Part shown: in pieces, positions 9,158-57,960 of the stretch | Layout of the letters: every line of letters begins with the position of its first letter | Position numbering within the stretch: position 1 is the first letter of the stretch | From: a virus | Taxonomy: Duplodnaviria; Caudoviricetes | Length of the DNA: 64,000 nucleotides | Virus record (IMG/VR): IMGVR_UViG_3300044655_001017 | Reading direction: 5' to 3' (one strand) | Made by a program: the position numbers and the translations under genes | Notes under the pieces: model-generated | Database searches by the model: none | What the model saw: only the letters and a program-made list of their open reading frames with translations | What the model was told of the DNA's origin: nothing

Positions 9158-9327
9158 ACTTGCTTTTTTAGTTTGTTTATGCTATAATAACGCATAGTAA
9201 AAAGTTAAAATAAAAAGCTATAGCGGGGCCGTCGGTGGCCAAGACAGACTGGATTTGAAAAGGCCGGAACCGAAACCACTATCCGATAGCTCTCCAAGTA
9301 TCTACCATAGCTCTCCACCTAGACCTC

Positions 9328-9366
9328 ACTGTATCCTTACTGTATCCTTACTGTATCCTTACTGTA
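9328..9366. repeat. 11-bp tandem repeat (ACTGTATCCTT)x3.5
   Basis: Three exact copies plus ACTGTA. Confidence 0.9.
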
Positions 9367-9407
9367 CCGGCAACAGGTGCTATATTAGTATAGCACCTTT
9401 CCCCACC

Positions 9408-9557
9408 TTAGTCAACTAAGTCTTTAAACCGTTTTATCTTACTAGTAAAGCGTGCCGCGTGTTCCTTACGTGTAAGGCTAAGCACGGTAACAAACGCTCC
9501 GCTTAATGCGTATGCGTTTCGTTTATATATGTAACCATAATAGTTGTTTGTTTGCAT
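9408..9557 (-). CDS. Small hypothetical early protein
   Basis: 49 aa, MQTNN start behind the promoter/AGCGTG leader cassette. Confidence 0.5.
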   Translation of the reverse strand: MQTNNYYGYIYKRNAYALSGAFVTVLSLTRKEHAARFTSKIKRFKDLVD

Positions 9558-10338
9558 AGTATGTTGCACGCTGTAGTTGTTTAGTAAGTGCATATTATAG
9601 CACGCTACACAAAAAATGCAAGCATTATTTTTACAAACAATAACCACACACAACCACCTATCCATAACCCCAATTTTCAAATATCTCACAGCGGGGCCTT
9701 TATAAAAGTGGTCACTTATGGCAAATGGATACAAGCGGTAAGCACTAACGCAAATTTGCGTTTTAAGCGTTGTTTGTTGTGTACTGCTATAGTTGCATTG
9801 CTTAGTATATAAACGCGTATTGTGTACACGTTAACGCGCAAGTTTTAGCAATGTAAATTATAAATGCTAAGTGTATTTTACACGCGCACGACAAATATTA
9901 AAAGTTTACAGCGGGGTATTGATATACCGGTTGCTCATTATGCTATACTATAGTATAATATTGGTATATTGAAACGTTGGTAAGATGGTAAAGAGGTTGA
10001 GGGCAGAGATAAGGGAAAGCCCGGTCCATTGCATACTGGATTCCGGGCTTTGGGCATACTATGTAAGTATGTTGTATGGTTGGTGAACAAATGCTACTAC
10101 CCATCTGCCCACCTGAGGTCTTTAGTCTTTACAGCGGGGCCTTTCTATAGGTCCTACTTTGTTTTGCGTCTAATTACTCGACGGCATGCGATTGTACTTT
10201 TTTTGGTTGCGCGATCGGATCTTCTTGCCATGTTGTTCTCCAGTGTTGTTGTAAAAAAGTATTTAACGTTTTAACTATTATACTATAGTGTTAAAGTAAA
10301 TGCAAGCACTTTTTACAGTGCTTGCATTGTGTTATTGT

Positions 10339-10698
10339 TTAATTAACAGTGCTATTTTGCACTTGTTTAACATACTTATTAAATGTTTTTTTAGTAACAC
10401 ATTTTATGTAAGCGTTGTTAATTTGCATTTGCGTTAAATTAGCGTTATTTGCTAGCGTTACTGTATAGCTAACACTGTAATTGCTAGCAAAGTTAATGTT
10501 AGCAACAAAAGCACTGCTAACATAGCATAACACATAATTTTTAGCTGCTTTGTATATTGTACGCTTTGCGTGTTTTTGCTTTGTTGCTATTACTTTGTTA
10601 TTAGCTACATAAGCGTTAAGCACTTGTAACATAGCTTGTTGCGTTGCTTTGTTACTGTTTTTTTGCGCTTGTTTGCGCGTTGCTGTAATTGTTTGCAT
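10339..10698 (-). CDS. Basic hypothetical protein lacking D, E, G, P and W
   Basis: 119 aa behind promoter cassette; terminator-like hairpin after stop. Confidence 0.6.
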   Translation of the reverse strand: MQTITATRKQAQKNSNKATQQAMLQVLNAYVANNKVIATKQKHAKRTIYKAAKNYVLCYVSSAFVANINFASNYSVSYTVTLANNANLTQMQINNAYIKCVTKKTFNKYVKQVQNSTVN

Positions 10699-10805
10699 AA
10701 TATACACACTATAGTTAAATTGTTAAAAAGCGTATGTTAAACGTAATTGCTTAACACAGTGCATATTATACACGTTTGTGTACAATATGCAAGCGTTATT
10801 TTTAA

Positions 10806-10982
10806 TTATTTTAGCAGTGCATCAAACGCTCCGCAAAACCCTGCAAACGCTATTGTTATCGGAGTAGCAACCAGCATCCACGTTACCGCGTCCACCATGA
10901 AGTTCATAACTCCATATTGCGTGTTACGCGCGTTTGCTTGTTTGTTTAAAAAATTTTGTACTGTTTGTTGTTTAGTTTGCAT
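10806..10982 (-). CDS. Small membrane protein
   Basis: 58 aa, hydrophobic C-terminal half; own promoter. Confidence 0.6.
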   Translation of the reverse strand: MQTKQQTVQNFLNKQANARNTQYGVMNFMVDAVTWMLVATPITIAFAGFCGAFDALLK

Positions 10983-11309
10983 AGTAGTAAGCACGCTGTT
11001 GTTGTTTAGTAAGTGCATAGTATAGCACGTTTAAAAATAATTGCAAGCTTTATTTGTATATTGTTTTCCGGTTGCCCAACACCTGCGAAGCCGGGGGGGG
11101 GGGGTGGTTGGTCGGTCTGTCCGATTGCCTAGCGGTCTAGTCCGGCTCTGTGGTGTGCATAGTATAGCACGTTTGTGTTGTAATTGCAAGCACTTTTTTA
11201 TTTAATTTTAGCATAGTAGTTTGCACGCTGTAGTTGTTTAAGTAGTGCATAGTATAGCATAGTTAAAACAAAAACGCAAGCACTTTTTACAGTGCTTGCG
11301 CTTGCTATG

Positions 11310-11693
11310 TTATTTAAGCACTGCTATTATTTGCACGTTATTAGTGCTTAATTCGTCTTGTGCATTGCTTTGCTCTTGTGCATTAAACTTATTTACAAAA
11401 GCTTGCATTGCACTATTTTGTTGCTCGTTATGATGTTCGCCTTGTTGTAGTGCAACAAGTGTTGCAGCTAATTCCGTGCATTGCACGTTTAAAGTGTAAA
11501 ATACTATATCGCTATGCTCTTTTGTTGCTAAAAGCGTGCTTACGCGTGCTTGCGCTGTTTTATCTGTAAAGCGTACTTTATAACCTATTGTCGCTTTAAC
11601 GTGCAAGCTTGCGCCTACTGCTATTACTTTTTTAGTGCTTGCGTTAATGCTGTTAACTACAATGTTTTGCACGCTAATGTTGCTGTTTGTCAT
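11310..11693 (-). CDS. Hypothetical early protein, paralog of 8733..9113
   Basis: Shared KATIG.K.RF...ARVSTL.ATK.HSDI segment. Confidence 0.8.
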   Translation of the reverse strand: MTNSNISVQNIVVNSINASTKKVIAVGASLHVKATIGYKVRFTDKTAQARVSTLLATKEHSDIVFYTLNVQCTELAATLVALQQGEHHNEQQNSAMQAFVNKFNAQEQSNAQDELSTNNVQIIAVLK

Positions 11694-11902
11694 TTTCTCG
11701 CTCCGAGTGTTGCACTAAAATAGTGCTATTAGTTAATACTGCTGTTTGTTACTACAAGTGCTATTATACGCTGTTTATTTGCACTTGTAAAGCGTTTTTT
11801 TAAAATACTTTTAAAACGCTTTTTTGTTGCACTGCTTTACTACAAAAACTATTATACGCTTTTTTGCGTAAATGTAAAGCGTTTTTTTATTTTATTTTTT
11901 GC

Positions 11903-11931
11903 TTGCATTTACTGTTTTATTGTGTTATAAT
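11903..11931 (+). promoter_or_regulatory. Sigma70 extended -10 promoter with no downstream ORF
   Basis: TTGCAT-N17-TATAAT with TG. Confidence 0.6.
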
Positions 11932-11975
11932 AGCGCAAGCGTAAAGCCCGCGCTACCGGTTCTCTCTATACCGCC

Positions 11976-12173
11976 TTACCTCATATCGCTGTCCGCCGCT
12001 TTATCACAGCGTGTCGCATATCCGGTGAGCACCGACTCATTCAACTTATCGAGGAGTTGAACTTCCATTGCCCGGTGTTGTTGGCACTCAGCTAGTGTTG
12101 GATATATGAATGTGTTATCAATTTCCTGCGCCCCAATAAACATCATCACTTTCAATATATATAATGCTTCCAT
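11976..12173 (-). CDS. Small hypothetical protein
   Basis: GGAGC RBS, own promoter. Confidence 0.6.
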   Translation of the reverse strand: MEALYILKVMMFIGAQEIDNTFIYPTLAECQQHRAMEVQLLDKLNESVLTGYATRCDKAADSDMR

Positions 12174-12501
12174 TGTTCTTGCTCCGCTTGTTACGTTAGC
12201 TTTATTGCTAACTTGCATATAGTATAGCAAACTATTAAACTATATGCAAGTGTTTTGTTTTCGACTAGTCCACTAATGCACTTGCTCTAAGATCCACAAA
12301 GTTCGCATACTTCATTGTGTCTTTTGTTTCTCTGCGCTCACGTAGTAGTGCAGTCCGGGCACGCTCGACTTCTCTGCGGGTCTGTACACCAATTAGTCTT
12401 GCGCTCAACACTGCCGTATATTCTTGTACCGGTTTCATTCTATGCTCCTAATGGTTTCAAAAGTTCGTTGTTGTCAGCACGTCCATGTGCCCTGTGTTAG
12501 T

Positions 12502-12801
12502 TTATAGTCCGTACATTTCAGCTACGCTGTTTGCCACACGTCCGTCGTTACCCCATTGTACTTTAATGCAACCCGGATGTTCATTGCCCAGTGCTGCCAA
12601 CTTAGCAAGTGCCAATTCCCAGTTGTTTAGTTTGTCTACTGGTTTCGGAGCGTCAGCACTTGTAAAGTAGTTAGCTGGTGGTACCTTACGTTCCGGAACA
12701 TTGCTTTTACTTGTTTTCACTTTGCCGCCTGCTTCCAAAAACGCTTGTACTGCATTGTTTGTTGCTGTGTTTTTTGCTTGTTTGTTTGTATTAGTAAACA
12801 T
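12502..12801 (-). CDS. Hypothetical early protein (AV.AFL..GG family, cf. 14451)
   Basis: Promoter cassette; AFLEAGGK resembles MFLATGGA in 14451. Confidence 0.65.
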   Translation of the reverse strand: MFTNTNKQAKNTATNNAVQAFLEAGGKVKTSKSNVPERKVPPANYFTSADAPKPVDKLNNWELALAKLAALGNEHPGCIKVQWGNDGRVANSVAEMYGL

Positions 12802-12976
12802 AATTTGCACGCTGTAGTAGTGTTAACAGTTAAACGTTATTGCTTAACTTGCATATAGTATAGCAAAGCAAAACTGGTATGTAAAGCGTTTTTTTTAAGT
12901 GTTGTTTCCATTGTGCCCACGCGTGTACACATAAACAGCGGGGCCTTTTCGGCACTTCCCTGTGCCGTTGTATCCG

Positions 12977-13318
12977 TTATAGTCCCGATCCGCATAAGCA
13001 GTTATACACAAACTCAGCATCCTGTAATGCCACATTGTTTATGTAATCCACTAAGTCCTTGTGCTCCTCTACTTCCTCTACAAACGCTTGTACCGCAGCA
13101 TCATCGTTCCACAAGTCATCATGTGCTTCGTAATGTCTGTTGTATATTGTTACCATTTGCGCAATTATATGCACCGGATGTTCAGTAGTGCCCCACTCCT
13201 CCGCATAGTTCTCGTCCGCCAACATAAACACTGTACTTGTTACGCTGGGAGTTAGCGGGTACTTGCTTGTGTTTGCGTTTGCTGTGTTAATTTTTGTTGC
13301 TGTAGTAGTATTTTGCAT
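12977..13318 (-). CDS. Hypothetical protein, tandem duplicate 1
   Basis: Near-identical C-terminal half to 13487 (IYNRHYEAHDDLWNDDAA). Confidence 0.75.
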   Translation of the reverse strand: MQNTTTATKINTANANTSKYPLTPSVTSTVFMLADENYAEEWGTTEHPVHIIAQMVTIYNRHYEAHDDLWNDDAAVQAFVEEVEEHKDLVDYINNVALQDAEFVYNCLCGSGL

Positions 13319-13486
13319 AGTTAGCACGCTGTAGTTATAAGTTAGCTTAATTGCTAACTTGTACATATTATAGCACGTTTAAACATTTTGTAAAGCGTTT
13401 TTTTAAGTTTTGTTTTCGCTGTTACCATACGCGTGTACACATAGCAGCGGGGCCTTTCCGAGCACGTCCATGTGCTCTGTGTTATC

Positions 13487-13834
13487 TTACAAGCCCGAGC
13501 AACATAAGCAATCATACACAAACACTGTGTTCTGTAATGCCACATTGTTTATGTAATCCACTAACTTCGCATTGTCCTCAACTTCCTCTATACACGCTTG
13601 CATCGCAGCATCATCGTTCCACAAGTCATCATGTGCTTCGTAATGTCTGTTGTATATCTCTGCTATCTTTAATACTATGTGTGTCGGATGTGTCGTTGTG
13701 CTCCACTCCTCCGCAAAGCTCGCATCCGCCAACAGTGCCAGCACACTTGTTTTGCTCGGATAGTACCCGGGCAATTTGCTTGTGTTTACGTTTTGTGTGT
13801 TAATTTTTGTTGCTGTAGTAGTATTAGTTTGCAT
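13487..13834 (-). CDS. Hypothetical protein, tandem duplicate 2
   Basis: Paralog of 12977 with duplicated promoter and CAGCGGGGCC. Confidence 0.75.
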   Translation of the reverse strand: MQTNTTTATKINTQNVNTSKLPGYYPSKTSVLALLADASFAEEWSTTTHPTHIVLKIAEIYNRHYEAHDDLWNDDAAMQACIEEVEDNAKLVDYINNVALQNTVFVYDCLCCSGL

Positions 13835-14013
13835 AATAAGCACGCTGTAGTAGTGTTAACAGTTAAGCGTTATTGCTTAACTTGTACATAGTATAACACG
13901 TTTAAACATTTTGTAAAGCGGTATTTTAGAGTATTGTTTCCGACATAACCGGGGGGGGGGTGGTCGGTCGGTCTGTCAGATTGCTTGGCACTTCCCTGTG
14001 CTCGATATATCAG

Positions 14014-14385
14014 TTATGCCATTATGCTCGCTACTTCAGTGTATCGTTGTTTCAATCTTTCGATCATATGGAGTAAGTCGACATTAAAGACTAAGTCATA
14101 TACATCGCTTTCCGTTGTACTCACTATACCAATTGCACTCGTGTAATGGAGTTGTTCGACTATAGTCGTTACAGTCGTTACATCTATTTTCAATTGTTTC
14201 GATACTTCGGCTAGTAACACTTTCGAAACTGTCTTGCGATCTCTGTCCGCTAGTCTATGAAACCCTTTTGCCAACATCCTTGCAACATCGGTATTTTGGC
14301 GTATCGTTGCACCAATGCTATCGTTATGCTCGTGTAACTCGTTTAAAAACTTAATATGGTTTCTCAATACTGTTTGGATAATCAT
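14014..14385 (-). CDS. Hypothetical protein
   Basis: 123 aa, GGAGCG RBS. Confidence 0.65.
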   Translation of the reverse strand: MIIQTVLRNHIKFLNELHEHNDSIGATIRQNTDVARMLAKGFHRLADRDRKTVSKVLLAEVSKQLKIDVTTVTTIVEQLHYTSAIGIVSTTESDVYDLVFNVDLLHMIERLKQRYTEVASIMA

Positions 14386-14450
14386 TATGCGCTCCAGTTA
14401 ATCAGTTAAGTACGCGCATACTCGATATATGCGCGTGTAAACAGCGGGGT

Positions 14451-14717
14451 CTATTGGCGTGCTTTGATTGCCGATTGCACCTGCTTGTTCAACAGCCCAA
14501 TTGCCGCTAGCTCCTCTTTAGCTTGTTCCCATGTGTATCGTTGTTTCTCTACTACAACTACGCGGGGAGTATGGACTTGTGATACTGTAGTGCGTCCTCT
14601 GCGTCCTGTTTTAGTTGTTTTAATTGCTCCTCCGGTTGCTAAGAACATTGCCACGCGAGCCGCTAACTCCGCTGCTTGTTGTTGTTTAACTTCGTTGTTC
14701 ATAATACCTGTTGCCAT
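14451..14717 (-). CDS. Hypothetical protein
   Basis: 88 aa, coupled to upstream ORF. Confidence 0.6.
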   Translation of the reverse strand: MATGIMNNEVKQQQAAELAARVAMFLATGGAIKTTKTGRRGRTTVSQVHTPRVVVVEKQRYTWEQAKEELAAIGLLNKQVQSAIKARQ

Positions 14718-14878
14718 TATACACGCTCCGCTTTATCGTTAATGTCAGTTTCTTCAGTTTGCTCACAATCCCAACATGGTTCAAGCTCATCTGTTTCCAT
14801 GTTGTATAGTACAGTCAAGTCCCCACACGTAGTGCAATACGCGCGTAGTGGGTAAGTGTTTTTGTATTGTACTTGCAT
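14717..14878 (-). CDS. Small Zn-ribbon-like protein
   Basis: CTTC...CWDC. Confidence 0.55.
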   Translation of the reverse strand: MQVQYKNTYPLRAYCTTCGDLTVLYNMETDELEPCWDCEQTEETDINDKAERV

Positions 14879-14983
14879 AATTTTTACACGCTGTTTTGTT
14901 AATGTGTGCATATTATAGCATTGTAACACGCGCATTGCAAGTAGTTTGTTAACCGCAATGCGCGTGTACATAAGCAGCGGGGC

Positions 14984-15400
14984 CTATACGGTAGTTACGA
15001 GCAACAAGTTGTCCAACACATCCGCTTTAGCTCTGTATACCATGTTGCCGTGTCTCGTATGCTCAATTACAATCCCATTTGCCTCACACCACAAGTCCAA
15101 ACGCGCTGCTCTTAAGCTCACTTTATCTTTAAACTGTGGTTTGTTGACTTTAACGGCAATAAACTTTTTTCTGTAGTTCATAAACACGTTGCTCTGTATA
15201 TACACATCCTCAATGTGTGCTAACAACGCTTCCCCTGCGCTCAATTGCACTAAGCTATACAAACTCTCATTCTCAGCGTCTCTGCGTTTAATATCCTCTA
15301 AGCACACGTAAGCTGGAAGTTTGACGTCATCCGATGTGTGTGATACAGCGTGTACAATAGCAGTAGCTGTGTTTTTGAGTAATTTAGTAGTTGTTGACAT
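14984..15400 (-). CDS. Hypothetical protein
   Basis: 138 aa, promoter cassette. Confidence 0.65.
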   Translation of the reverse strand: MSTTTKLLKNTATAIVHAVSHTSDDVKLPAYVCLEDIKRRDAENESLYSLVQLSAGEALLAHIEDVYIQSNVFMNYRKKFIAVKVNKPQFKDKVSLRAARLDLWCEANGIVIEHTRHGNMVYRAKADVLDNLLLVTTV

Positions 15401-15505
15401 ATGATACGCTCCGAAAGTTATGTTAAGTTTTAAACAGTTAGCTGTTTTGCTAACTTGTACATATTATAGCAAACTAAGTACAAGTTAGCAAGTGATATTT
15501 TTGAA

Positions 15506-15694
15506 CTATAGTTCCACTAGCTCGCCGCGTGCTACTGCGTCCGCAGCTTCTAGTTCCTCTTTATAGAACTTGTTGATAGCATTGTTTGTTTCGAGATACG
15601 ATTTGGAGTTTTTGGCTTGTGTACGCAATTGGCGTGTGAGCATGTTAATGTATTTGATACGCGCGGCGCTTGTGATGTAAAGTATTTTTTGCAT
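15506..15694 (-). CDS. Small helical protein, paralog of 16161
   Basis: NSKSYLETN vs NSKAYLEAN. Confidence 0.6.
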   Translation of the reverse strand: MQKILYITSAARIKYINMLTRQLRTQAKNSKSYLETNNAINKFYKEELEAADAVARGELVEL

Positions 15695-15793
15695 AATATA
15701 CACGCTATAGTTATAAGTTAGCTTAATTGCTAACTTGTACATATTATAGCAAACTATATACAAGTTAGCAAATGGTATTTTAGAACTTTGTTT

Positions 15794-16066
15794 TCACCCT
15801 TCCGGATAGCAACCAGCTTCCATCATTGCATAGATAACTCGTTCTCTTGGTAGAGTATCTTGATATACCAGCGAGTTGATTAACTGATCGTAGTCGCCGC
15901 TTTTCATATAACTGATTAAACACTTTTGGTTGTACTTGCCATCTTCAATTGCCAAGTCCATAAAGTCCCACTCATCTGCTTCGGCATACTCTTTTGCTTG
16001 AGCATTGAAGTCGGTAACACATTGTTTGAGGGTAGCGATTACAACAGGATTAGTAGTGTTTGGCAT
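15794..16066 (-). CDS. Hypothetical protein
   Basis: 90 aa, own promoter. Confidence 0.65.
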   Translation of the reverse strand: MPNTTNPVVIATLKQCVTDFNAQAKEYAEADEWDFMDLAIEDGKYNQKCLISYMKSGDYDQLINSLVYQDTLPRERVIYAMMEAGCYPEG

Positions 16067-16160
16067 AGTAGTTTACACGCTGTAGTAGTTAAGTAAGTGT
16101 ATATTATAAAGCATTGCAGGCGGTTTGTAAAGAACTTTGTTAACCGCCTGCCGGTATATA

Positions 16161-16418
16161 CTACGCGGCTTCTAATTGCGCCAATGCAAACGCTTCATCA
16201 AGTGCCATCTCCGCAATGTATATACGGTTTAACTGAGTGTTGGCTTCCAGGTAAGCTTTGGAGTTAACACGCGCGGCACTGATTTGAGAGCGGAGCGAAC
16301 GGATTTGGCGGGCGGTCGCTTCCGATACAAGGCGCTTTGGCTTTTGGGCAGCTGCCTCCGCTTCGGCTTGCTTGTGTGCTTTAAGTTTGGCTGCTAACGA
16401 TACATTGTATTTTGACAT
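16161..16418 (-). CDS. Small helical protein, paralog of 15506
   Basis: Own promoter. Confidence 0.65.
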   Translation of the reverse strand: MSKYNVSLAAKLKAHKQAEAEAAAQKPKRLVSEATARQIRSLRSQISAARVNSKAYLEANTQLNRIYIAEMALDEAFALAQLEAA

Positions 16419-16587
16419 AGTAGTTTACACGCTTGTTGTTAAGTAAGTGCATATTATACTATAGTATGCACTGGTTGTCAAGAACTTTATATTCACCCGC
16501 GCTCGCACACGCGTAAACAGCGGGGTCTATCCGGGGGGGGGGAGGTCGGTCGGATTGGCCGGTTATTCGCTGCCCCCAATCTATCGG

Positions 16588-16761
16588 TTACTCATCGTCC
16601 CATATGTCGTCCCAGTCTATTGGTGTGTAGGCATCATCTATATCGTCTCCCCAGTCTTCGTCCATTCCTGCAAAGAACTCTTTTCGCTCTTGCATTAAGG
16701 TCGCACCGCGTGTTTGAAGTATTGCTAACTGCTCTCTTAAGTTTTGCTCTATAGCTTCCAT
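16588..16761 (-). CDS. 57-aa protein with Asp/Trp-rich tail (not in ORF track)
   Basis: GGAG RBS; ...DEDWGDDIDDAYTPIDWDDIWDDE*. Confidence 0.6.
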   Translation of the reverse strand: MEAIEQNLREQLAILQTRGATLMQERKEFFAGMDEDWGDDIDDAYTPIDWDDIWDDE

Positions 16762-16825
16762 AACAGCTCCGACTAATTAGTTAAGTCGCCCCGCCATACA
16801 CACATATGCAGCGGGGCCTATTACT

Positions 16826-17179
16826 CTATGCTACTGCTAACTCAGCTTCCAGTGCATCTGCTGCTGCCGCGTAGTCCACTTCCTCAACTACTACACTTTG
16901 TGGAGCAACCACTGTGTACTTGCTAAAGAAGTCATCGAATGCTTGTTGTGCATCTAAGTCCTCTAACTCTGTGTAGTTCTTAATTGCCATTGCTGCATCA
17001 TACTTGGTCATTGCACCGTCTAGCGCAAACAATCTAATGTCTGTGTGTCCATTGCGTTGTAACACTTTCACACGATCCGCTTTGTTAGCAAATCGTACTT
17101 TGTACACACCATTTAAGTTGCTGATGCCAGCGAAAGTAAATGTTTTTTCAACTGCAGTAACTGTGATTAAGTTTGACAT
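16826..17179 (-). CDS. Hypothetical early protein (KVRFAN..RV..L..NGHTDI family)
   Basis: Close paralog of 35649..36134. Confidence 0.75.
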   Translation of the reverse strand: MSNLITVTAVEKTFTFAGISNLNGVYKVRFANKADRVKVLQRNGHTDIRLFALDGAMTKYDAAMAIKNYTELEDLDAQQAFDDFFSKYTVVAPQSVVVEEVDYAAAADALEAELAVA

Positions 17180-17273
17180 ATTGTACGCTCCAAAAAATAG
17201 AAAAGTTAAGTTGTTTTACTGCTAGTTAGCTAACGCGCTTGTTAGCTAACTTGTTACATATTATACAGCATTT

Positions 17274-17507
17274 TTAAAACATTGCAAGCATTTTGTTTTC
17301 TCTTGCTTCAAGTATTGCATCAATACGCGCCTCAACACTCTCTGCGCTCTCAAGTGTTGTCCAGCCGCCGTTGTTGTGGCGTCCATCTTGTACTGAAGTT
17401 TCCATAATTCCTGTGTTTCTATTTTTATACTCCGACACTGTGATAGTAGTGTTAAAGTAGATAGTAACGATGTTGTTGCTTGTTGTAGTAATTTTTAATT
17501 TATACAT
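17274..17507 (-). CDS. Hypothetical protein
   Basis: HNNGGW motif; GGAGCG RBS. Confidence 0.6.
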   Translation of the reverse strand: MYKLKITTTSNNIVTIYFNTTITVSEYKNRNTGIMETSVQDGRHNNGGWTTLESAESVEARIDAILEARENKMLAMF

Positions 17508-17737
17508 AATACGCGCTCCGCATTGTTGTTTAACTTGTACATAGTATAGCAAACTTATTTTGGTTTGTAAAGAAGTTTTAAATCACTAGCTCATACCAGT
17601 TCAATACAGCGATTGCGCTCAATAATACGATAGTAGTGAATACTGCGAATGTGTGTATAAACGACATTTTGTTTGCTCCTCATATATATAGTACACGCAT
17701 AGTATAGCAAACTACATACAGGTTGTCAACTGGTTTG

Positions 17738-18304
17738 TTACTCGGTGTATGCCGCCATTACCAATCCCACATAGTTCTGAGTCTCCGGATATGGTGGAAC
17801 CTTATTCTTATGCCGCATCACCGCATGCTCGCCCGCATTGTAACCGGCTACTGCTAGTTTGGTATCTTTGAATGTATCGAGCAAGAACCTTAGGAACCGA
17901 ACTCCACCTTCAATGTTCTGTCTTTCATCCATCCGATCACTCACTCCAAATCGCTCTGCCGTTGCCGGCATCAGCTGCATCAATCCAGCCGCACCTTTCT
18001 TACTTACAGCCGATTTGCGATATGTACTTTCCGTTTTAATGACTGCATGTACCAACTTCTCATCCACTCCATACTTCTTTGCAGCGATATGAACATAGTG
18101 ATTGACTTCCCATCGGGTTAATGGTTTGGTCTCCGGTTTCGCTACTATAGTAGTATGAACAACTGGTTTGGCTGCAGTATTGATCTCAACCGGATGATCT
18201 GTTAACCAAACTCGCCCATCCGCTCCCGTATATCTATATACATCCGCATTCACCGGCATTACTACTATAGTAGCGAGAATGGCAGCGCGGATCATTTGGC
18301 GCAC
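17738..18304 (-). CDS. Lytic transglycosylase (SLT) with signal peptide and DUF4124-like N-terminus
   Basis: AVIKTES, GLMQLMP, AGYNAG, PPYPETQNYV; DVYRYTGADG. Confidence 0.9.
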   Translation of the reverse strand: MRQMIRAAILATIVVMPVNADVYRYTGADGRVWLTDHPVEINTAAKPVVHTTIVAKPETKPLTRWEVNHYVHIAAKKYGVDEKLVHAVIKTESTYRKSAVSKKGAAGLMQLMPATAERFGVSDRMDERQNIEGGVRFLRFLLDTFKDTKLAVAGYNAGEHAVMRHKNKVPPYPETQNYVGLVMAAYTE

Positions 18305-18588
18305 TCTGCTGCGAACTTAACCATTGCTGCATACTCTGGATTGGCTACAGCGGTGACTACATGAGTAAGTAAATGAGCAATCATTGTAATCCCACCGATC
18401 CATGCTACGATCATTACACATGCATAGGTAAACGCATCCGATCCATTGAACTCATCTTTTAATAACTTAAACAGATAGTATGATCCAGCTAATACTCCAG
18501 ATATTACTACTATAGCGGCAATGTCTGGAATGGTGTCTATAATAGCTTGCTTTGCCAATAACTCTTGTGGTACATTGCATAACTTCAT
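18292..18588 (-). CDS. Two-TM membrane protein
   Basis: Two hydrophobic helices; overlaps SLT start. Confidence 0.65.
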   Translation of the reverse strand: MKLCNVPQELLAKQAIIDTIPDIAAIVVISGVLAGSYYLFKLLKDEFNGSDAFTYACVMIVAWIGGITMIAHLLTHVVTAVANPEYAAMVKFAAECAK

Positions 18589-18989
18589 AACGCGCTCCGC
18601 AGTTGTTGTTTAACTTGTACATATTATAGCATACACAGCGGGGTCTGTAAAGAACTTTGTTACTCGTATACGCCCACTTGTATGTGCGCGTGTAGCGTGT
18701 TATATTATAAGCGCATAGCATACTATAGTATAAGTATGCTCACGCACTATAGCGCATTTATACGCGATATACGCTATGATACACTATAGTATAATAATAA
18801 GCGCATATACACATATGAGTAACTATGCACAGCGGGGCCTTTTATAGGTCCAGGACTCGATAATAACTCGTCATCTTCGGTTTTTGGCCCGCGTCGTTAG
18901 CGGTCTGCAACACCATGATTTTGCCGTTTTTCACGTTTATAGACCGACCTAGTACCAGAGTACAGGGTCCGGTTAAAAAGAATAAGAAA

Positions 18990-19104
18990 AAGCTCACTTT
19001 AGGGAGCGAATCTAAAGTGAGCTTATAGAGTTACTATAGTATAGGGAGCGAATCTATACTATAGTATATAGAGTATAGTTGGGAGCGAATCAACTATACT
19101 CTAT
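18990..19104. repeat. Three tandem perfect hairpins with identical loop GGAGCGAAT
   Basis: Stems 13/13/14 bp of different sequence. Confidence 0.95.
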
Positions 19105-38709: not shown

Positions 38710-38763
38710 ACTTTATTAAGTAAAAACATATTATAGCATTTACAGCGGGGTGTGTAAAGAAGT

Positions 38764-39012: not shown

Positions 39013-39039
39013 AATTCCTCCTACGCGTACAGCGGGGCC

Positions 39040-40835: not shown

Positions 40836-40988
40836 AATAACCTCCCAAATATTATTAAAATAGCGCGTTTTTGTTTTTGTATAGTGTAGCATTAAAAACA
40901 TTTTAAAACGCTGTAGTCCGCAAAAACTGCTTGGAAAGCAAACTAAAGTTTTGTTATTGCTTGCAATGCTACGCATTAACAGCGGGGC

Positions 40989-41198
40989 CTATGCTGGCAT
41001 TACGCTTGCAATGTTACCAATTAAGTTCTGTGCAAACTCTATAGTAAAGTTGTATCGTGTGTCGCGTAATGGTTCAATAGGGATAGGTACATCAATAAAA
41101 TATGTAGTGTCTGATAGCTTACGAAGTTGTGATGGTAAAACGCCGGCATGTTTGGCTAAGGCTCTTTCTAAAGTAATGTTTGACATTGTGGTCTCCAA
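40989..41198 (-). CDS. Hypothetical protein
   Basis: GGAG RBS; stop abuts CAGCGGGGCC. Confidence 0.55.
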   Translation of the reverse strand: METTMSNITLERALAKHAGVLPSQLRKLSDTTYFIDVPIPIEPLRDTRYNFTIEFAQNLIGNIASVMPA

Positions 41199-48058: not shown

Positions 48059-48145
48059 GTTATGCTCCTGTATATACAGCAGGGCCTTGCTTGCTGTAGT
48101 GTTTAAAAAAATATAGTATAACAACTATTTGTTGATTTGTAAAGA

Positions 48146-49990: not shown

Positions 49991-50027
49991 ATTATAGCAA
50001 AATATTTATTAGTAAGCAAATGGTAAT

Positions 50028-50246: not shown

Positions 50247-50427
50247 GTTACAGCGGGGCCTATAGTTCGAACTGGTAATACAAATGCTGGAAAGTTATTC
50301 TTCCGTGAAGCGGCATGCCATCCGTGTATGTATGGATCATTACGAAATTCATATGGGGTAAACATTCGCCAATCATACATGTCTTTATATGTACAGGTAG
50401 CACAGTATAACCATGCGCTGTCTCAAT
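50243..50427 (-). pseudogene. 5'-truncated mini-CLec gene
   Basis: AWLYCATCTYKDMYDWRM...LPVRT in frame, preceded by in-frame TGA; no MIE start. Confidence 0.7.
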
Positions 50428-50486
50428 CCATTTTATAGTTAGAATAATCTAAGTATTCTAAGTGTGTATTGTAAGCTAAATCTCTT

Positions 50487-50699: not shown

Positions 50700-50706
50700 A
50701 ATAATC

Positions 50707-51411: not shown

Positions 51412-51480
51412 TGTAAGCTCCGCGTGTTAGTAAGTAAAAACATATTATAACAAACTACACGCGGATGTGCAAGCAGTTAT

Positions 51481-52527: not shown

Positions 52528-52529
52528 AG

Positions 52530-52745
52530 TTACTCCTGTGAGGTATGGTTATAGATAAAAAGTTGTACTTCTGCTTCTTGAGATACTTCGCTGTCATCTC
52601 TATCTGCTCCACATTCATTGCAATGGTGTTGTTTTACTGATCTTAGATATGCATGTGAGCAATCACAATCCCAATATGAATAATTTAAAATCATATCATC
52701 AATAACCATTACATTATCTCCTTGCGGATTTGTTCCAATTAGCAT
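52530..52745 (-). CDS. Zn-finger protein, paralog of 38476
   Basis: YWDCDC...HCNEC. Confidence 0.6.
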   Translation of the reverse strand: MLIGTNPQGDNVMVIDDMILNYSYWDCDCSHAYLRSVKQHHCNECGADRDDSEVSQEAEVQLFIYNHTSQE

Positions 52746-52783
52746 TGTAACTCCTTGTGTTGTTGTAAAGTGTTTATTATATA

Positions 52784-53044
52784 TTAGTGTGTTTTATTTG
52801 TCAAACGGTATTCTATCCGAATAGAGTCCCAAGGCAATCCGTCAATTACATTATTAGGGATTAATGTCAGTGAGCGGTATATTTGATCGTGATTAGGAAT
52901 GATAATGCGTCGTTCAATCTTTTCAGAATCTGCTAAATCAGTTAGCATCCTTGCAAAATCATATGGATCACATCTACACAGGTCGTAAAGTTCTATTGGA
53001 GTCTTTGCACCAGATTGAAGTGCAGATAAGATAATTTTTTGCAT
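52784..53044 (-). CDS. Hypothetical, possibly winged-helix
   Basis: AGGAG RBS. Confidence 0.55.
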   Translation of the reverse strand: MQKIILSALQSGAKTPIELYDLCRCDPYDFARMLTDLADSEKIERRIIIPNHDQIYRSLTLIPNNVIDGLPWDSIRIEYRLTNKTH

Positions 53045-53151
53045 AACTTCTCCTTTTTACTGTGTGAATGTTTAAAACAAATTAAAGTATAAAGTAAACT
53101 TTACAATTTGTCAACTGAAAGTTTACTCTATACATGTTACAGCGGGGCCTT

Positions 53152-54231
53152 TTACCAGAACTTTACTTTTTTAAGTGCTTTATTCATTTCATTTGCTGCG
53201 CGATCGGCTGCTTCTCTAGCTTCGTTAGCTACACGATCTGCTTCTCTAGCTGCACTTTCTGCGGCTTCTTGTGCTGCTCTAGTTGCTCGTTCAGATGCTT
53301 CTTGTGCTTCTCTAATTGCTCTTTCAGATGCTTCTTGTGCTTCTCTAGCTGCGCGTTGTGCTTGCTCAAGTGCTTCTCTAGCTGCACGATCTGCTTGTTC
53401 TTGAGCTGCTCTTGCAATGCGATTAGCTTCTTCATTAGCAATGCGGGCAGCTTCTTGAGCTTCTTTAGCAACAATTTCCGCTTGCTCATGCGCAAAACGA
53501 GCTGACTCTAATGCTGCTTGATCAACTGCGTCTACAACTGGAGTAGTATCAACTGATAATTCAGCATTAAATTCTACACCAGCTAATAACTCTATTTCAC
53601 CTTCTACACCTATGCTAACGGTATTGCCGTGTACAGTTGCACCACCTCCAACTTCTGCACCAGCTTGTAATCCAATACTAACACCTGCACCTGCTTCAGC
53701 AGTTACGCCATGGCTTTCTGCTACTGCATTAGCTTCTACACCAACACTTGCACCTACTGATGCTCCTGCGTGTCCTTCTGCGCCATGTAACCCGACTGAT
53801 GCTTCGGCTTCAACACCGGCATGAGCTTCAGCATACGCGCCACCCGAAACACTAACTGTACCAACATCTTCATTACCAACTGATGCACTTGCTCCAACTT
53901 CAGCACGAGCTTCAACACTTGCACTAGCTTCAACAACTACATCTGTACCTGTCCATCCTGCACTTGCTTCAGCAGTAGCTTCAACTTCTGCAGTAGCGTG
54001 TGCTTCAGCTTCTAATGTAACATCACCTACTGTAACACTTGCACCGGCTTCTGCGCCAATACTTGCACCTGCGTGTGCTTCTGCTGATGCGCTTGTATCA
54101 GTTACTTCCGCACTTGCACCTGCGTGTGCTTCGGCATATACATCAGCATGTGATTCTTCTGTTATTGTTACGCCATTAAGCGTAACTGACTCTTCTTGGC
54201 TTACACCTGTACCTACTTCTTCTTTTGACAT
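53152..54231 (-). CDS. Ala/Glu/Gly/Val-rich beta-repeat protein with C-terminal coiled coil
   Basis: AEAHAGAS repeats; AAREA.EA.ERA heptads; CTAAATA at 54253-54259. Confidence 0.75.
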   Translation of the reverse strand: MSKEEVGTGVSQEESVTLNGVTITEESHADVYAEAHAGASAEVTDTSASAEAHAGASIGAEAGASVTVGDVTLEAEAHATAEVEATAEASAGWTGTDVVVEASASVEARAEVGASASVGNEDVGTVSVSGGAYAEAHAGVEAEASVGLHGAEGHAGASVGASVGVEANAVAESHGVTAEAGAGVSIGLQAGAEVGGGATVHGNTVSIGVEGEIELLAGVEFNAELSVDTTPVVDAVDQAALESARFAHEQAEIVAKEAQEAARIANEEANRIARAAQEQADRAAREALEQAQRAAREAQEASERAIREAQEASERATRAAQEAAESAAREADRVANEAREAADRAANEMNKALKKVKFW

Positions 54232-54262
54232 AACACTCTCCTTATTGTCTGCTATTTAGCTA

Positions 54263-54697
54263 TCAATAAGTCCACTGCGCAAACTGCTTAAAGAAACGTG
54301 TTATAGGTCCATTGTAATAGTTATACTCATCTTCTGTAACATCTCTTACTAAAACTAATTCTAATGGAGCTCTGAGTGAATTCCAATCAGAGAAATGTCT
54401 AATTACTGATAGGTTCGAACAGTATATAGCTTCATTCATTGTAGGTAGTCGCCATCCTCTCTTTCCATCATGCTTACTCAGCATAAACAAATGCATCGTT
54501 GCTTCATCAGCACTAGAACATAATAGTCCAGTATAAACGATTTCAATGATTTTTTTCTCATAGTGATTAACCGGGACTCCTACAACATAACGCACTCTGT
54601 TGTCGCCATAAGGATTCGTAGGTACGTCAAATTTTAAATATACATTACAATTGAATATTCGGTTAAACCATTTCATATTTGTTCCCTTACTGGACAA
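54263..54697 (-). CDS. mini-CLec/DUF1566-like member with N- and C-terminal extensions
   Basis: IIEI, DEA, GWRLPT, LVRD. Confidence 0.7.
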   Translation of the reverse strand: MSSKGTNMKWFNRIFNCNVYLKFDVPTNPYGDNRVRYVVGVPVNHYEKKIIEIVYTGLLCSSADEATMHLFMLSKHDGKRGWRLPTMNEAIYCSNLSVIRHFSDWNSLRAPLELVLVRDVTEDEYNYYNGPITRFFKQFAQWTY

Positions 54698-54882
54698 ACA
54701 ATTCGAAACTTCTTTACAGTTTTTGCGTTTTCATACCAACCAAGTAATTCATTTCTGCTAGCCCATTCTTTATGAGTTGGCATGCGCCAATCCTTGTGCC
54801 CATTATGTTCTAATATAAGACAGTATACCCATGCTTCGTCATATGTTAGCTGAGGGAAGAACGTTGGGGCGAATTCTATCAT
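54673..54882 (-). CDS. mini-CLec/DUF1566-like family member
   Basis: YDEAWVYC, DWRMPT, CPVRE. Confidence 0.75.
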   Translation of the reverse strand: MIEFAPTFFPQLTYDEAWVYCLILEHNGHKDWRMPTHKEWASRNELLGWYENAKTVKKFRIVCPVREQI

Positions 54883-55232
54883 CCTCTACGCATCCGTGAA
54901 ATCTCAGTTGCTTGCTCTTGGTTGATAACAGGAACTAAATTACTTTTGTGCATTTGCGCACATCCTTTAATCAAAGTACCTGTATACTTAGGAGGTTCAA
55001 TACGACTGCCGCCACCTTTAGTAGTTGTAACTAAACTGGGAGGTTTACTATCACTACCTCTATATGTTGGTGCAGGCGGAGTATATGACTGTTTCTTAAG
55101 TGCGTCTTTAAGAGATTTAGAACTAGATGGTTTGGTAGATAATCCGTGTTGCTTTGCCATAGCTAACCATTGCTTCTCAGCTTCTAATGCTTTACGCTTT
55201 TCTTCAGCTGATTTATACTTTGTTTTTTTCAT
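54879..55232 (-). CDS. Conserved T4-like-phage basic protein
   Basis: YTGTLIKG...MHKSNLVPV....A.EISRMRR. Confidence 0.6.
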   Translation of the reverse strand: MKKTKYKSAEEKRKALEAEKQWLAMAKQHGLSTKPSSSKSLKDALKKQSYTPPAPTYRGSDSKPPSLVTTTKGGGSRIEPPKYTGTLIKGCAQMHKSNLVPVINQEQATEISRMRRG

Positions 55233-55464
55233 TTATATCCCTCACTGGTATAATAAAACAGGTTGCATTATAGTTTAACCACGCAGCGTTAGGCCTACCA
55301 ATATAGTCAACTATATCCCATGTATCAAAGAATTCTAATTTCATTCGTTCGTCATATGTTGGCATCCTCCAATCATACTTGTTATTATGAGTTAGGGTAG
55401 CACAGTACAACCATGCTTCGTCACATGTTATCTTGTGCGGCGATTCGTCTGCATGCTCAATCAT
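55213..55464 (-). CDS. mini-CLec/DUF1566-like family member
   Basis: DEAWLYC, DWRMPT, IPVRD. Confidence 0.75.
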   Translation of the reverse strand: MIEHADESPHKITCDEAWLYCATLTHNNKYDWRMPTYDERMKLEFFDTWDIVDYIGRPNAAWLNYNATCFIIPVRDINEKNKV

Positions 55465-55756
55465 GCTTAGTCCTTACTGCCAATACACGTCCGCGATTGT
55501 GAGGATCGTGTGATGACGGATTGTCTAAATCATCTTGTGTCCACACATACTTTGGTTTGTATATAAACGAATTACACCGAGTTGCTTCTCTGAGAGCATA
55601 AATCTCATCTACTTCACTACTAGTGGGTAATCGCCATCCTTTCTTTCCTTCAAACTCTAAGAATGTACAATACATAACTGCTTCATGTAAAGACATCCTG
55701 TTAGGATTTGGATCTACTGGTAGATAATGTACACTTAATGGTTTATGATATTTCAT
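55457..55756 (-). CDS. mini-CLec/DUF1566-like family member
   Basis: EAVMYC, GWRLPT, AVRT. Confidence 0.75.
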   Translation of the reverse strand: MKYHKPLSVHYLPVDPNPNRMSLHEAVMYCTFLEFEGKKGWRLPTSSEVDEIYALREATRCNSFIYKPKYVWTQDDLDNPSSHDPHNRGRVLAVRTKHD

Positions 55757-55980
55757 AAATCTCTCACTGGGTATATGTGATAGCTGAAAAATCTATCGTT
55801 ATCAATTCTTCCTTGATGCCATGCCATATACGCTAAAGGACCTTCAACCCATTCGTCTGGAGTAGGAAATCGCCAGTCTGCATGCCCATCATGGACTAGA
55901 GTAATTACATACAAAAAAGCTGCATCGCGATTATATAATTTCCGACTGATCCCAGGTGGATTAGATAATATTTCTATCAT
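55753..55980 (-). CDS. mini-CLec/DUF1566-like family member
   Basis: DWRFPT, YPVRD. Confidence 0.75.
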   Translation of the reverse strand: MIEILSNPPGISRKLYNRDAAFLYVITLVHDGHADWRFPTPDEWVEGPLAYMAWHQGRIDNDRFFSYHIYPVRDL

Positions 55981-56288
55981 TTGTCTCTCACTGCAACTGC
56001 TATACCTGTTTTACGATTTTCATATGGTTCAATCATAGCTTCTATAGCTTGCTGGGTATGGTTGTATTGTTTTGCAAGCAATGCTCGTTCTTCATTCGTA
56101 CTCTCTCGATACCATGTATTAGTTGTAAGTCTGCCATCTGCAGTATCTGCCCATTCAAGTAAAGTTGGCAACCGCCAGCCTTTCTTTCCTTGGTGATCTA
56201 AAAACAAACAATACATAACAGCTTCGGCATACGTTATAAATTTTGATTGACAAGTGGCTACTAGCATATGGCTCCTTACATAAAACAT
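55977..56288 (-). CDS. mini-CLec/DUF1566-like family member
   Basis: EAVMYC, GWRLPT, AVRD. Confidence 0.75.
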   Translation of the reverse strand: MFYVRSHMLVATCQSKFITYAEAVMYCLFLDHQGKKGWRLPTLLEWADTADGRLTTNTWYRESTNEERALLAKQYNHTQQAIEAMIEPYENRKTGIAVAVRDK

Positions 56289-56326
56289 TATTATAGCGCA
56301 AAACTTAGGACTTTACAAATGGTATT

Positions 56327-56551
56327 TTAATCAGCAGTGCGCACTGGACATATTTTATGTGTTACTTTAGCTATCTTAAGACCTTCATCATTCTGATCAA
56401 ACGCATCGCAATCAATTGCTTCGTAATCACAAAATTCTTCTTCAGTTGGTATGCGCCAGTCATACTTGTTATTATATGTTAGTGTAGCACAGTATAGCCA
56501 GGCATCATCAAATGAGAACCGGCCGGCTGGCATTGGGGCAATCTCAAGCAT
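56327..56551 (-). CDS. mini-CLec/DUF1566-like family member
   Basis: DDAWLYC, DWRIPT, CPVRT. Confidence 0.75.
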   Translation of the reverse strand: MLEIAPMPAGRFSFDDAWLYCATLTYNNKYDWRIPTEEEFCDYEAIDCDAFDQNDEGLKIAKVTHKICPVRTAD

Positions 56552-56813
56552 CTTTAGTTCTCACTGGTTGTACAACTCTTATTGATAAGAATTTTAAACT
56601 TTTTACCGTTGGTAAGCTGTTTAGATTGCTATCTCTAAAATCATCTTCATCCGAGTCATCATATGCTGATAGTGAAATTCCATCAATATCTTCATATTCG
56701 TCATGGGTTGGAATACGCCAATCGTATTTGTTATCGTGTATACAGGTAGCGCAGTATAGCCATGCTTCGTCGTAATTTAGATATTCATTTAATATAGGTG
56801 CAATCTCAAGCAT
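56544..56813 (-). CDS. mini-CLec/DUF1566-like family member
   Basis: YDEAWLYC, DWRIPT, QPVRT. Confidence 0.75.
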   Translation of the reverse strand: MLEIAPILNEYLNYDEAWLYCATCIHDNKYDWRIPTHDEYEDIDGISLSAYDDSDEDDFRDSNLNSLPTVKSLKFLSIRVVQPVRTKDA

Positions 56814-57024
56814 CTTTAGTTCTCACTGGTTGTACACGCCAATGGCTAGGACGTGGTTCGTCTGATTGATCAAAGGATTCTTCATCAATTTCGTCGTTGT
56901 ATGTAAACTCGTAATCAGTTGGAATACGCCAATCATATTTGTTATTATGAGTTAGAGTAGCACAGTACAACCAAGCGTCGTCATATGACATCTTATAATC
57001 AGATAGTGGTGCTAGTTCAATCAT
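56806..57024 (-). CDS. mini-CLec/DUF1566-like family member
   Basis: YDDAWLYC, DWRIPT, QPVRT. Confidence 0.75.
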   Translation of the reverse strand: MIELAPLSDYKMSYDDAWLYCATLTHNNKYDWRIPTDYEFTYNDEIDEESFDQSDEPRPSHWRVQPVRTKDA

Positions 57025-57034
57025 AATTTCTCCT

Positions 57035-57507
57035 ATTAGGTATAAAGGACTAAAGTCCTAAATTATAATAATTTTATATTCGTTGGCACTCATATCAATT
57101 ATTATAATTTTATTTTCTTTCTTTGAATATTTTGTTAGATTTAGAAGTCATATTGGCCCGCAAAGGCCAATGGAACATTTGTTGAGTTTCTTCATGTCTT
57201 AGCATTAGAGCATTACAGAGGCGGTCATCCGGTACCTCGAGCTCCGTCCTGGTTTTTATATGACGGCGGACTAATTATACAATGCTAACCATATAATCAG
57301 TCGTAAGGGTGTTACCCTTTCTTTTAACCTTATGTGTACAGCGGGGCCATAACCTGTAATGAGTTTTGTAAAGGTACATCTCATGTTCATCCAAATGGGT
57401 AGGTGGTTATGTCGTTGCTACAGTTCAACAATTCCATCACTGTGATACATCTGTCCAGTTATAGGGCGCATAGATAATACAGTTTGCGCGACACCTGCTG
57501 TAGTTAT
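57035..57507 (-). ncRNA. Candidate large structured ncRNA or leader
   Basis: ORF-free ~480 nt with many nested helices downstream of TTGACA-N17-TATAGT. Confidence 0.55.
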
Positions 57508-57513
57508 GCGTAC

Positions 57514-57542
57514 ACTATACAGTATATGCACACGTATGTCAA
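57514..57542 (-). promoter_or_regulatory. Near-consensus sigma70 promoter
   Basis: TTGACA-N17-TATAGT. Confidence 0.75.
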
Positions 57543-57568
57543 GTGTTATTATGTTACAGCGGGGCCTT

Positions 57569-57775
57569 TTAGTACGATGCAGCTGTACTAACAGGAAGTA
57601 ACAACCATTCTTCTAAGTTACCTGTATAGTTATCGCCAGTAAAGATTTCCATCTCGCAACGAAACTCGTCATGTTTAAAAGCATAAACAGTAATGCTAGA
57701 ATCGATTGATATTATCCGCATGTACAACATACATCCAGTTTCTACTATTCTTCTGTCAGTATAAATGGTTTCCAT
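57569..57775 (-). CDS. Hypothetical protein
   Basis: CTAAATA (57798-57804) and GGAG RBS. Confidence 0.55.
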   Translation of the reverse strand: METIYTDRRIVETGCMLYMRIISIDSSITVYAFKHDEFRCEMEIFTGDNYTGNLEEWLLLPVSTAASY

Positions 57776-57960
57776 GGTATTACTCCGGTTGATAAATTAT
57801 TTAGTGTATGTGTTACAGCGGGGCCTATTTGCATATAACGTGTTATGCGTATAGTATATAAGTGTATATGTGTGTTGTCAATGTGTATGAGCGTATTACA
57901 TGTATATGTAATTATACTCGTGTGGAAATGTGTGTAATGCAGAGTTTACAGCGGGGCCTT

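Follow-up and report, generated by a model that had tools for sequence, protein, structure and literature searches.

A short, direction-specific recognition word, kept by selection and reading GGCCCCGCTG in the sense direction, punctuates the untranslated DNA between genes in an early, hyperplastic block of small genes of a T4-like jumbo phage. The block lies in the 64-kb stretch of viral DNA analysed in this study (IMG/VR record IMGVR_UViG_3300044655_001017; 'the window' refers to this whole stretch). The existence of the word, its polarity, its placement between genes, its restriction to one block and its spread across a clade of related, uncultured phages from aquatic habitats are established, as is, from the comparison of orthologous sites, the purifying selection acting on it. 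As the best reading of its role we tentatively favour a protein-read mark of early transcript junctions, and we weigh this below against a polar DNA site, an elongation signal, a promoter, a recombination site and a genome-wide polar signal.

The window encodes a DnaB-like helicase with 58% identity to its counterpart in Pseudomonas phage PA5oct, further jumbo-phage genes and four tRNA genes, and is AT-rich (GC 34–44%); megablast of two 10-kb pieces of it against cultured phages gave no match. A long series of small genes, every one on the minus strand, runs from ~59.6 kb down to ~9 kb and is driven by many near-consensus sigma70-type promoters. These include, between 27170 and 46085, repeated early promoter–leader cassettes of two families, A (TTGCAT..TATACT) and B (TTTACA/TTGCAA..TGcTATAAT), at least 18 copies in total; behind each come a conserved leader and a GGAG site. 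Copies of the word are restricted to this ~50-kb early block and, because the genes of the block all lie on the minus strand, are read as GGCCCCGCTG in their sense direction.

Count, polarity and consensus

The plus-strand form CAGCGGGG occurs 20 times on the plus strand of the window and never on the minus strand, against an expectation of 0.28; none of 100 dinucleotide-preserving shuffles contained it more than twice. Adding the variant TAGCGGGGCC brings the count to 21 copies; AGCGGGGCC accounts for 16, again on the plus strand only, when the TAGCGGGGCC copy at 9221 is counted in, and no reverse-complement copy of the word is present in the window. An earlier note on this DNA, made from its letters alone, had listed these copies and described them as strictly one-sided; every coordinate proved correct, and all 21 copies lie on one strand with no reverse-complement partner. 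A search allowing two mismatches added a single decayed copy (GGCCCTGCTGT, 48076–48086, minus strand), intact in the nearest relative, for a total of 22.

On the sense strand the word extends to a 16-letter form, A-W-A-GGCCCCGCTG-Y-W-A. The alignment of the 21 window copies gives A-W-A-GGCCCCGCTG-T-A-A with zero information further out, and logos built from 64 distinct copies in viral relatives and then from a wider set of ~120 distinct copies, drawn from AT-rich loci of viruses and metagenomes, recovered the same word, both without conservation beyond 16 nucleotides (nt). Position 11 is a pyrimidine and position 12 mostly A in the wider copy set. Paired nearby 10-mers in GC-rich metagenome DNA were set aside as collagen-like GPAG coding repeats unrelated to the element.

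Conservation among related phages

Three related contigs place the word in the same block and on a single strand each time. The nearest record, G001 (88.6 kb), is colinear with the window from 16.3 to 64 kb and carries 14 copies, all within this shared block, while ~45 kb beyond the early block have none. G002 (176 kb) has eight copies, all in its last 5.6 kb, which correspond to window 9–15 kb, and none in the remaining ~170 kb. G007 (98 kb, ~78% nucleotide identity) has ten, all between 10 and 19 kb, and none in ~79 kb. Each G007 copy is the orthologue of a window copy, and across these ten sites the 8-mer never differs and the 10-mer differs once, with 50-nt flanks 75% identical. At the copy at 14975, the C-terminus of the upstream protein is altered in G007 and its stop codon still abuts the word. 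Judged by these orthologous sites, the word itself is under strong purifying selection. More distant IMG/VR and metagenome contigs (GC 37–47%) hold 1–5 copies each, on a single strand in every relative, and some of them carry tandem arrays of 2–4 copies, 22–51 nt apart, with unrelated spacers. No cultured relatives of the tandem arrays, or of the marine locus described below, were found.

Placement of the copies

None of the 22 window copies lies within a credible open reading frame (ORF), and in the wider set 101 of 123 copies fall outside any ORF of at least 70 amino acids (aa), the adjoining ORFs being mostly co-oriented (Table 1). Ten window copies start no more than 11 nt from a stop codon. 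Eight of these do so at −1 to +2 nt, which bears out the abutment to minus-strand stops reported earlier, and the other two at 7–11 nt; two further copies lie ~31 nt past a stop with a small hairpin between. At 50251 and 39030 the word makes up nearly the whole intercistronic gap. A promoter start follows 10–67 nt downstream of eight copies, and a hairpin accompanies only a subset. The two copies that the earlier note had placed in promoter spacers (18636 and 38743) do lie there, and the alternating purine–pyrimidine runs it had seen are real.

The distance from word to promoter is variable, and numerous early promoters have no copy at all. Boxes resembling −10 elements are enriched 40–70 nt downstream of the word; no fixed geometry like that of a MotA box was found between the word and these boxes, and TATAAATA-type late boxes are not enriched near the window copies.

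Table 1 Copies of the word in the window and the marine head-of-block locus. Strand gives the sense orientation; marine coordinates are those of the respective contigs.
Position	Strand	Variant	Setting (sense direction)
9221..9230	−	GGCCCCGCTA	Last of block; upstream GGCC able to pair with first half
9689..9698	−		ORF-poor stretch; GGGG run ~20 nt downstream
9909..9918	−	TACCCCGCTG	−10-like boxes upstream; leader position possible
10132..10141	−		Heads GC-richer unit of ~220 nt without credible ORF
12936..12945	−		31 nt past stop, hairpin between; may pair with downstream GCG(T)GGGC; promoter 50 nt on
13445..13454	−		Neighbouring paralogous cassette; layout as for 12936
14442..14451	−	GACCCCGCTG	Overlaps stop codon; next gene without promoter before it
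14975..14984	−		Overlaps stop codon; then 13-bp hairpin, then promoter
16518..16527	−	GACCCCGCTG	C11 run before; can pair with downstream AGCG(C)GGGT
16809..16818	−		7 nt past stop; perfect GCCCCGC/GCGGGGC hairpin; next gene without promoter
18636..18645	−		Core within spacer of TTTACA-N17-TATAAT promoter
18830..18839	−		Heads ~190-nt unit free of ORFs
38743..38752	−		Core within promoter spacer (TTTACA-N17-TATAAT); 11 nt past stop
39030..39039	−		Directly behind stop; Shine–Dalgarno and ATG 17 nt later, too tight for a promoter
40980..40989	−		Overlaps stop codon
48077..48086	−	GGCCCTGCTG	Decayed; G001 version intact
50251..50260	−		Fills entire gap: stop, word, 4 nt, ATG of mini-lectin gene
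53140..53149	−		2 nt past stop of 359-aa gene; then 21-bp hairpin with TTGACA promoter box in loop
57339..57348	−		1 nt past 3′ end of Polynucleobacter-1-like RNA (57350–57494)
57557..57566	−		2 nt past stop; promoter of Polynucleobacter-1-like RNA 14 nt further
57816..57825	−		~20 nt downstream of predicted TTGACA-N17-TATACT promoter start
57949..57958	−		First of block; 2 nt past stop
L023 8609–9766; G009 3736–4891; also L047, L032, L036, L214, L298			Marine head-of-block locus

The word also persists where the surrounding DNA is poor in certain dinucleotides, as the earlier note had remarked for a region depleted in GG and CC: copies survive inside tracts free of GA, GG, TC and CC. Across window 8492–19000 the sense RNA contains UC at 0.40 and CC at 0.65 of expectation (GA and GG on the plus strand), while plus-strand TC and CC stand at 0.65 and 0.78, so that the depletion is asymmetric. 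Runs of sense strand free of YC (pyrimidine followed by C) reach 643 nt and span whole genes, the word forming the exact end of four such runs. This asymmetry between the strands points to constraints acting on the transcript. The primary site of the termination factor Rho binds YC, and it is possible that YC-poor early RNA is RNA unable to load Rho; the asymmetric loss may be relevant to the way in which early transcripts of the phage evade surveillance by the host.

A proposed mark of early transcript junctions

We tentatively infer that the word is read in RNA, by a protein, and that it functions at junctions. Early transcripts would carry it as GGCCCCGCUG, where a dedicated putative protein would read it as a junction mark for early cistrons and small RNAs; its possible jobs include definition or protection of 3′ ends, processing between cistrons and leaky attenuation. 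It would occupy the place held by the stem-loop in the terminator–promoter ('PeSL', promoter-early stem-loop) cassettes of T4-type phages, in which a stem-loop precedes an early promoter; the enrichment of −10-like boxes 40–70 nt behind the word corresponds to this layout. Further support is seen in the conservation at orthologous sites and in the restriction to a block transcribed from sigma70-type promoters. The transcript is favoured as the level of reading by the co-orientation of copies and genes (21 of 21 lie on the sense strand of all genes of the block), by exclusion of the word from translated sequence, by its position at the ends of cistrons and of one small RNA and by the strand-asymmetric composition. 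Of the three readings offered in the earlier note, the one that this most resembles, an RNA element of the 3′ untranslated region containing GGCCCCGCUG, stays viable and ranks first; it is as yet unproven, and the copies include some in 5′ leaders and some in possibly untranscribed spacers.

Several observations weigh against this reading. The first copy of the marine loci described below sits in a divergent spacer and is perhaps untranscribed in the sense direction, which favours a reading at the DNA level. The window copy at 57816, ~20 nt past a predicted promoter start, belongs to a 5′ leader, and two others occupy promoter spacers. The word is no general requirement of transcription units, since many early promoters lack it. 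Three or four genes downstream of a copy have no promoter of their own (copies 14442, 16809, 39030 and 50251), and RNA-library contigs of relatives span the copies at 12936, 14442 and 16809. These contigs were assembled from three lake metatranscriptome runs, cover small parts of 8.5–20.5 kb at 90–95% identity and are informative on the spanning of copies and on joints only, not on RNA ends or strand. Because of these promoterless genes and spanning contigs, read-through is evident at several copies and an efficient terminator or cleavage site is ruled out.

When folded, the word pairs with an imperfect downstream complement in ~7 of 21 copies, perfectly at 16809 and with a one-base bulge at 12936 and 16518, and G007 retains the imperfect complements at the corresponding loci. 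No copy is followed by a U run, and a scan for intrinsic terminators detected no such structure at the copies on the minus strand, which is the transcribed one; the one match that touches a copy (10136–10155) is on the plus strand. An intrinsic (Rho-independent) terminator is ruled out on these grounds. As most copies are unpaired and none has a U run, recognition must be by primary sequence rather than by fold. The proposition in its full form, that a hairpin-independent 16-nt word marks early RNA ends or junctions on transcripts of the host RNA polymerase, through a dedicated phage reader and in YC-stripped RNA, across the whole clade, is unlikely to hold in all its parts.

A possible polar DNA site and the marine loci

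The most serious competitor to the transcript-junction mark, which we consider possible without thinking it likely, is a polar DNA site bound by a protein that recognises asymmetric sequence. Such a protein might regulate or block early transcription, or might nick one strand specifically, and its directional action on DNA would be reflected in the fixed orientation. Support comes from a marine head-of-block locus (Table 1) that comprises genes for an AlgH-like (DUF179) protein, for a basic protein of 79 aa that is highly conserved and for a 71-aa protein predicted to be all-beta. This trio is transcribed leftward from a TATAAATA-type box, divergently from 1–4 copies of the word, and the first copy or array lies in the divergent spacer, 5–9 nt from the box, with no recognisable rightward sigma70 promoter upstream of it. 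Copies in possibly untranscribed divergent spacers, beside a late-type box and at the head of a gene trio, stand where an autoregulatory operator typically would. Tandem arrays with unrelated spacers likewise look like binding sites, two window copies lie within promoter spacers, and recognition is by primary sequence. Against this, the spacings within arrays are not phased with the helix (Rayleigh p = 0.35 for a period of 10.5 bp; 40 spacings, 22–133 nt), which also rules out an iteron- or centromere-like array, and no set distance to promoters exists. A DNA site has no need to avoid coding sequence, yet all 22 window copies do, and the word is absent from 10 of the 16 loci at which a gene of the 71-aa family occurs.

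The 71-aa protein was considered as a candidate reader; its predicted structure is a small all-beta model of low confidence (predicted local distance difference test score, 69) with no family match. Similarity between it and the 87-aa product of the gene heading the window's block was undetectable. Homologues of the AlgH-like and 79-aa proteins are encoded in G001, ~3–5 kb past the position of the window's right end. The first marine gene to the right of the motif (L023 9767, L026, L032 and G009 4892) has no Shine–Dalgarno sequence and starts with an ATG 5–11 nt behind a CTAAATA box; the first rightward mRNA may be leaderless or nearly so.

Less likely readings: elongation signal or promoter

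An elongation signal like ops or nut, at which polymerase pauses and a factor loads on the non-template strand or the nascent RNA, would carry polymerase across untranslated gaps and guard it against Rho. The word has the right form, being 12–16 nt long and situated on the sense strand of DNA that is transcribed but not translated, and its initial GG and the T-G-Y at positions 9–11 match the flanks of the consensus pause (PMC5995543). Transcription passes copies, one copy lies in a leader, and the surrounding sense RNA is depleted in YC, putatively through pressure from Rho. We nonetheless regard this reading as distinctly improbable: the pause-critical G at +1 occurs in only 8 of 64 copies, most copies sit behind genes and ahead of the next promoter rather than just downstream of promoters, and a conserved boxB-like hairpin is absent. 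In addition, no gene for a NusG paralogue or RfaH-like protein (PF02357) was found in G001, G002, G004, G007 and G009, which are incomplete contigs, with 11 of 14 control genomes scoring.

We give still less weight to the word as a promoter, or part of one, for phage-specific transcription (middle class or phage polymerase), by which early genes would gain a second, later promoter. The word is intergenic and oriented as the downstream genes, A-W-A followed by GG resembles the start region of promoters for single-subunit polymerases, one marine lineage has the core at a fixed 8 nt before a TCAAATA box, and two window copies lie 7 nt ahead of a −10 box. However, conservation is zero upstream of position −3, more than 250 kb outside the early block contain no copy, a start codon lies 4 nt from the word at 50251, arrays at 22–27 nt spacing are too tight for separate promoters, and a TAnnnT box stands at the right distance in only 5–6 of 21 copies. 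A search for a T7-like polymerase gene (PF00940) gave no match, but neither did its controls. A T7-type promoter in particular is ruled out, as it would need ~17 conserved upstream bases where information is near zero beyond position −3.

Improbable readings: recombination and genome-wide signals

The earlier note had also proposed a crossover site marking gene-cassette ends, and a recombination site or homology patch that shuffles cassettes, in the manner of PeSL elements or integron attC sites, was weighed as well. The word lies at gene ends in a hyperplastic region, two joints in relatives fall 25–30 nt from a copy, and in one marine lineage a 195-aa gene flanked by two copies is missing from L036. 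The breakpoints speak against it. At ~13 points the synteny between the window and G001 is broken, every time more than 100 nt away from any copy; the G007 insertions lie at promoters without a copy, and a 370-nt cassette (promoter and gene, 16142–16513) absent from the relatives' RNA-library contigs ends in promoter-proximal DNA and not in the word. Most insertions and deletions relative to G001 and G007, including the joint of this deletion, map to or are bounded by repeated sigma70 promoters; shuffling here looks promoter-mediated, as in PeSL elements. L036 retains both copies, an outcome not expected of recombination between them. A match of 10–16 nt is moreover short for homologous exchange, and the inverted-repeat core of a partner site was not seen; some copies have a bulged downstream complement, most do not. 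We consider recombination at the word very improbable, and the proposed crossover role finds no support in these comparisons.

A genome-wide polar signal of the Chi, KOPS (FtsK-orienting polar sequence) or packaging type, or one of nucleoid organisation, had also been suggested; the strand bias is perfect, and the word does contain AGCGG. The genome-wide count and skew that the note had called for, run on the relatives, gave no copy outside the block over long distances: ~170 kb in G002, ~79 kb in G007, ~45 kb in G001. Because the word is confined to the early block, where it occurs only between genes, such a signal is excluded. A scan of 185,579 species genomes with the 15-mer returned single chance matches, with no multi-copy genome among the matches listed. 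We see next to no chance that the reading as a genome-wide polar signal is correct. A host repeat or uptake signal was rejected on the same scan, which gave only single matches per locus among those listed.

Further candidates were dropped on specific grounds. The end of a target of a diversity-generating retroelement (initiation of mutagenic homing site) is ruled out, because the sequences upstream of the copies share nothing (information ~0) and the upstream genes are mutually unrelated. Helix 17 of Escherichia coli 16S ribosomal RNA (rRNA) carries CAGCGGGG; pairing with 16S rRNA was abandoned, because in a sample of 401 genomes from one gammaproteobacterial class just 4 contained TTTCAGCGGGGAGGAA. 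A link to the 'handle' RNAs of the Ro60-like type was rejected, since the handle ends differently.

Comparison with known signals

Among the closest published parallels is the PeSL element, a stem-loop followed by an early promoter, of T4-type phages (Comeau 2014, PMC4122927; Arbiol 2010, PMC2839356). Both are repeated composite elements of hyperplastic early regions, co-oriented, behind small ORFs and before near-consensus sigma70 promoters, and the window has two repeated early-promoter families where the insertions and deletions of relatives map. The conserved part differs: here it is an asymmetric, non-palindromic 16-nt word, as opposed to a G(n)-loop-C(n) or A3–4G3-loop-C3T3–4 stem-loop. 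A hairpin is possible in only about a third of the copies, many copies have no adjoining promoter, and insertions and deletions do not end at the word.

The ops element of RfaH and boxA of lambda nut are likewise short sense-strand words read by sequence in untranslated, transcribed DNA. ops (GGCGGTAGCGTG) is the exemplar of the consensus pause, whose centre is free for read-out by a factor (PMC5995543), and its likeness to our word lies in the GG start and the 3′-proximal T-G-Y, which match the flanks of the pause consensus. The 12-nt ops consensus has a pause-inducing T-G at positions 11–12; all but one of 64 copies of the word do carry a pyrimidine at position 11, but position 12 is G in only 8. 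Moreover, most copies lie behind genes, up to 22 occur per genome, some in tandem, and no boxB-like hairpin accompanies them.

Outside bacteria, the poxvirus early terminator T5NT and the yeast mitochondrial dodecamer are hairpin-independent 3′-end signals served by dedicated factors. The likeness is that of a short, strand-specific word behind one class of genes in an AT-rich genome that avoids it elsewhere; unlike here, they belong to other polymerases and domains of life, and transcription in our case reads through several copies. Phage T5 and phiKMV-like phages have localised single-strand interruptions at strand-specific nick motifs. These too are conserved, asymmetric, one-stranded words common to related phages, but they are not restricted to the intergenic gaps of one block.

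There is no published description of the word in the literature searched: a full-text search for the 10-mer returned only primers and unrelated sequences, and the signals described in the transcriptome paper on PA5oct are limited to TATAATA/TTGAC promoters and hairpin terminators. What is known of gene control in T4-like jumbo phages comes almost solely from such promoters and terminators. The retention of the word at orthologous sites amid drifting DNA, and in ~120 distinct contexts in aquatic phage contigs, implies an unrecognised reader, be it a protein or a polymerase. Should its role be to mark the ends of RNAs or to load a factor for elongation, phages would prove to have a new type of punctuation signal, and the word would give a handle on that reader; as a hairpin-independent RNA-end word it would be a bacterial-virus counterpart of T5NT or the mitochondrial dodecamer. 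In practice, the word can also be used to spot the early block in jumbo-phage contigs from metagenomes.

Neighbouring genes and candidate small RNA units

Beside the helicase gene, two neighbouring large genes (2038–7758, plus strand) encode proteins of 992 and 910 aa whose sole match is a DUF4116 repeat, with no PHROG family. The 359-aa protein encoded at 53152–54231 (minus strand), behind which the copy at 53140 lies, consists almost entirely of Ala/Glu/Val/Gly repeats and has a coiled-coil-like tail.

A Polynucleobacter-1 RNA (RF01718; 57350–57494, minus strand; 59.6 bits), transcribed from a TTGACA-N17-TATAGT promoter, has a copy of the word on either side, and its orthologue in G001 is the only further copy of this RNA found. 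Short units of 130–470 nt bracketed by the word and without a convincing ORF (9221–10141, 18636–18839 and 57816–57958) may be small RNA genes; the GC-richer unit downstream of the copy at 10132 is conserved in G002 and G007. Just upstream of the copy at 16518, the sense strand carries a homopolymer of ~11 C (16529–16545, minus strand), which is kept at a different length in G007 and may be a slippage-prone tract.

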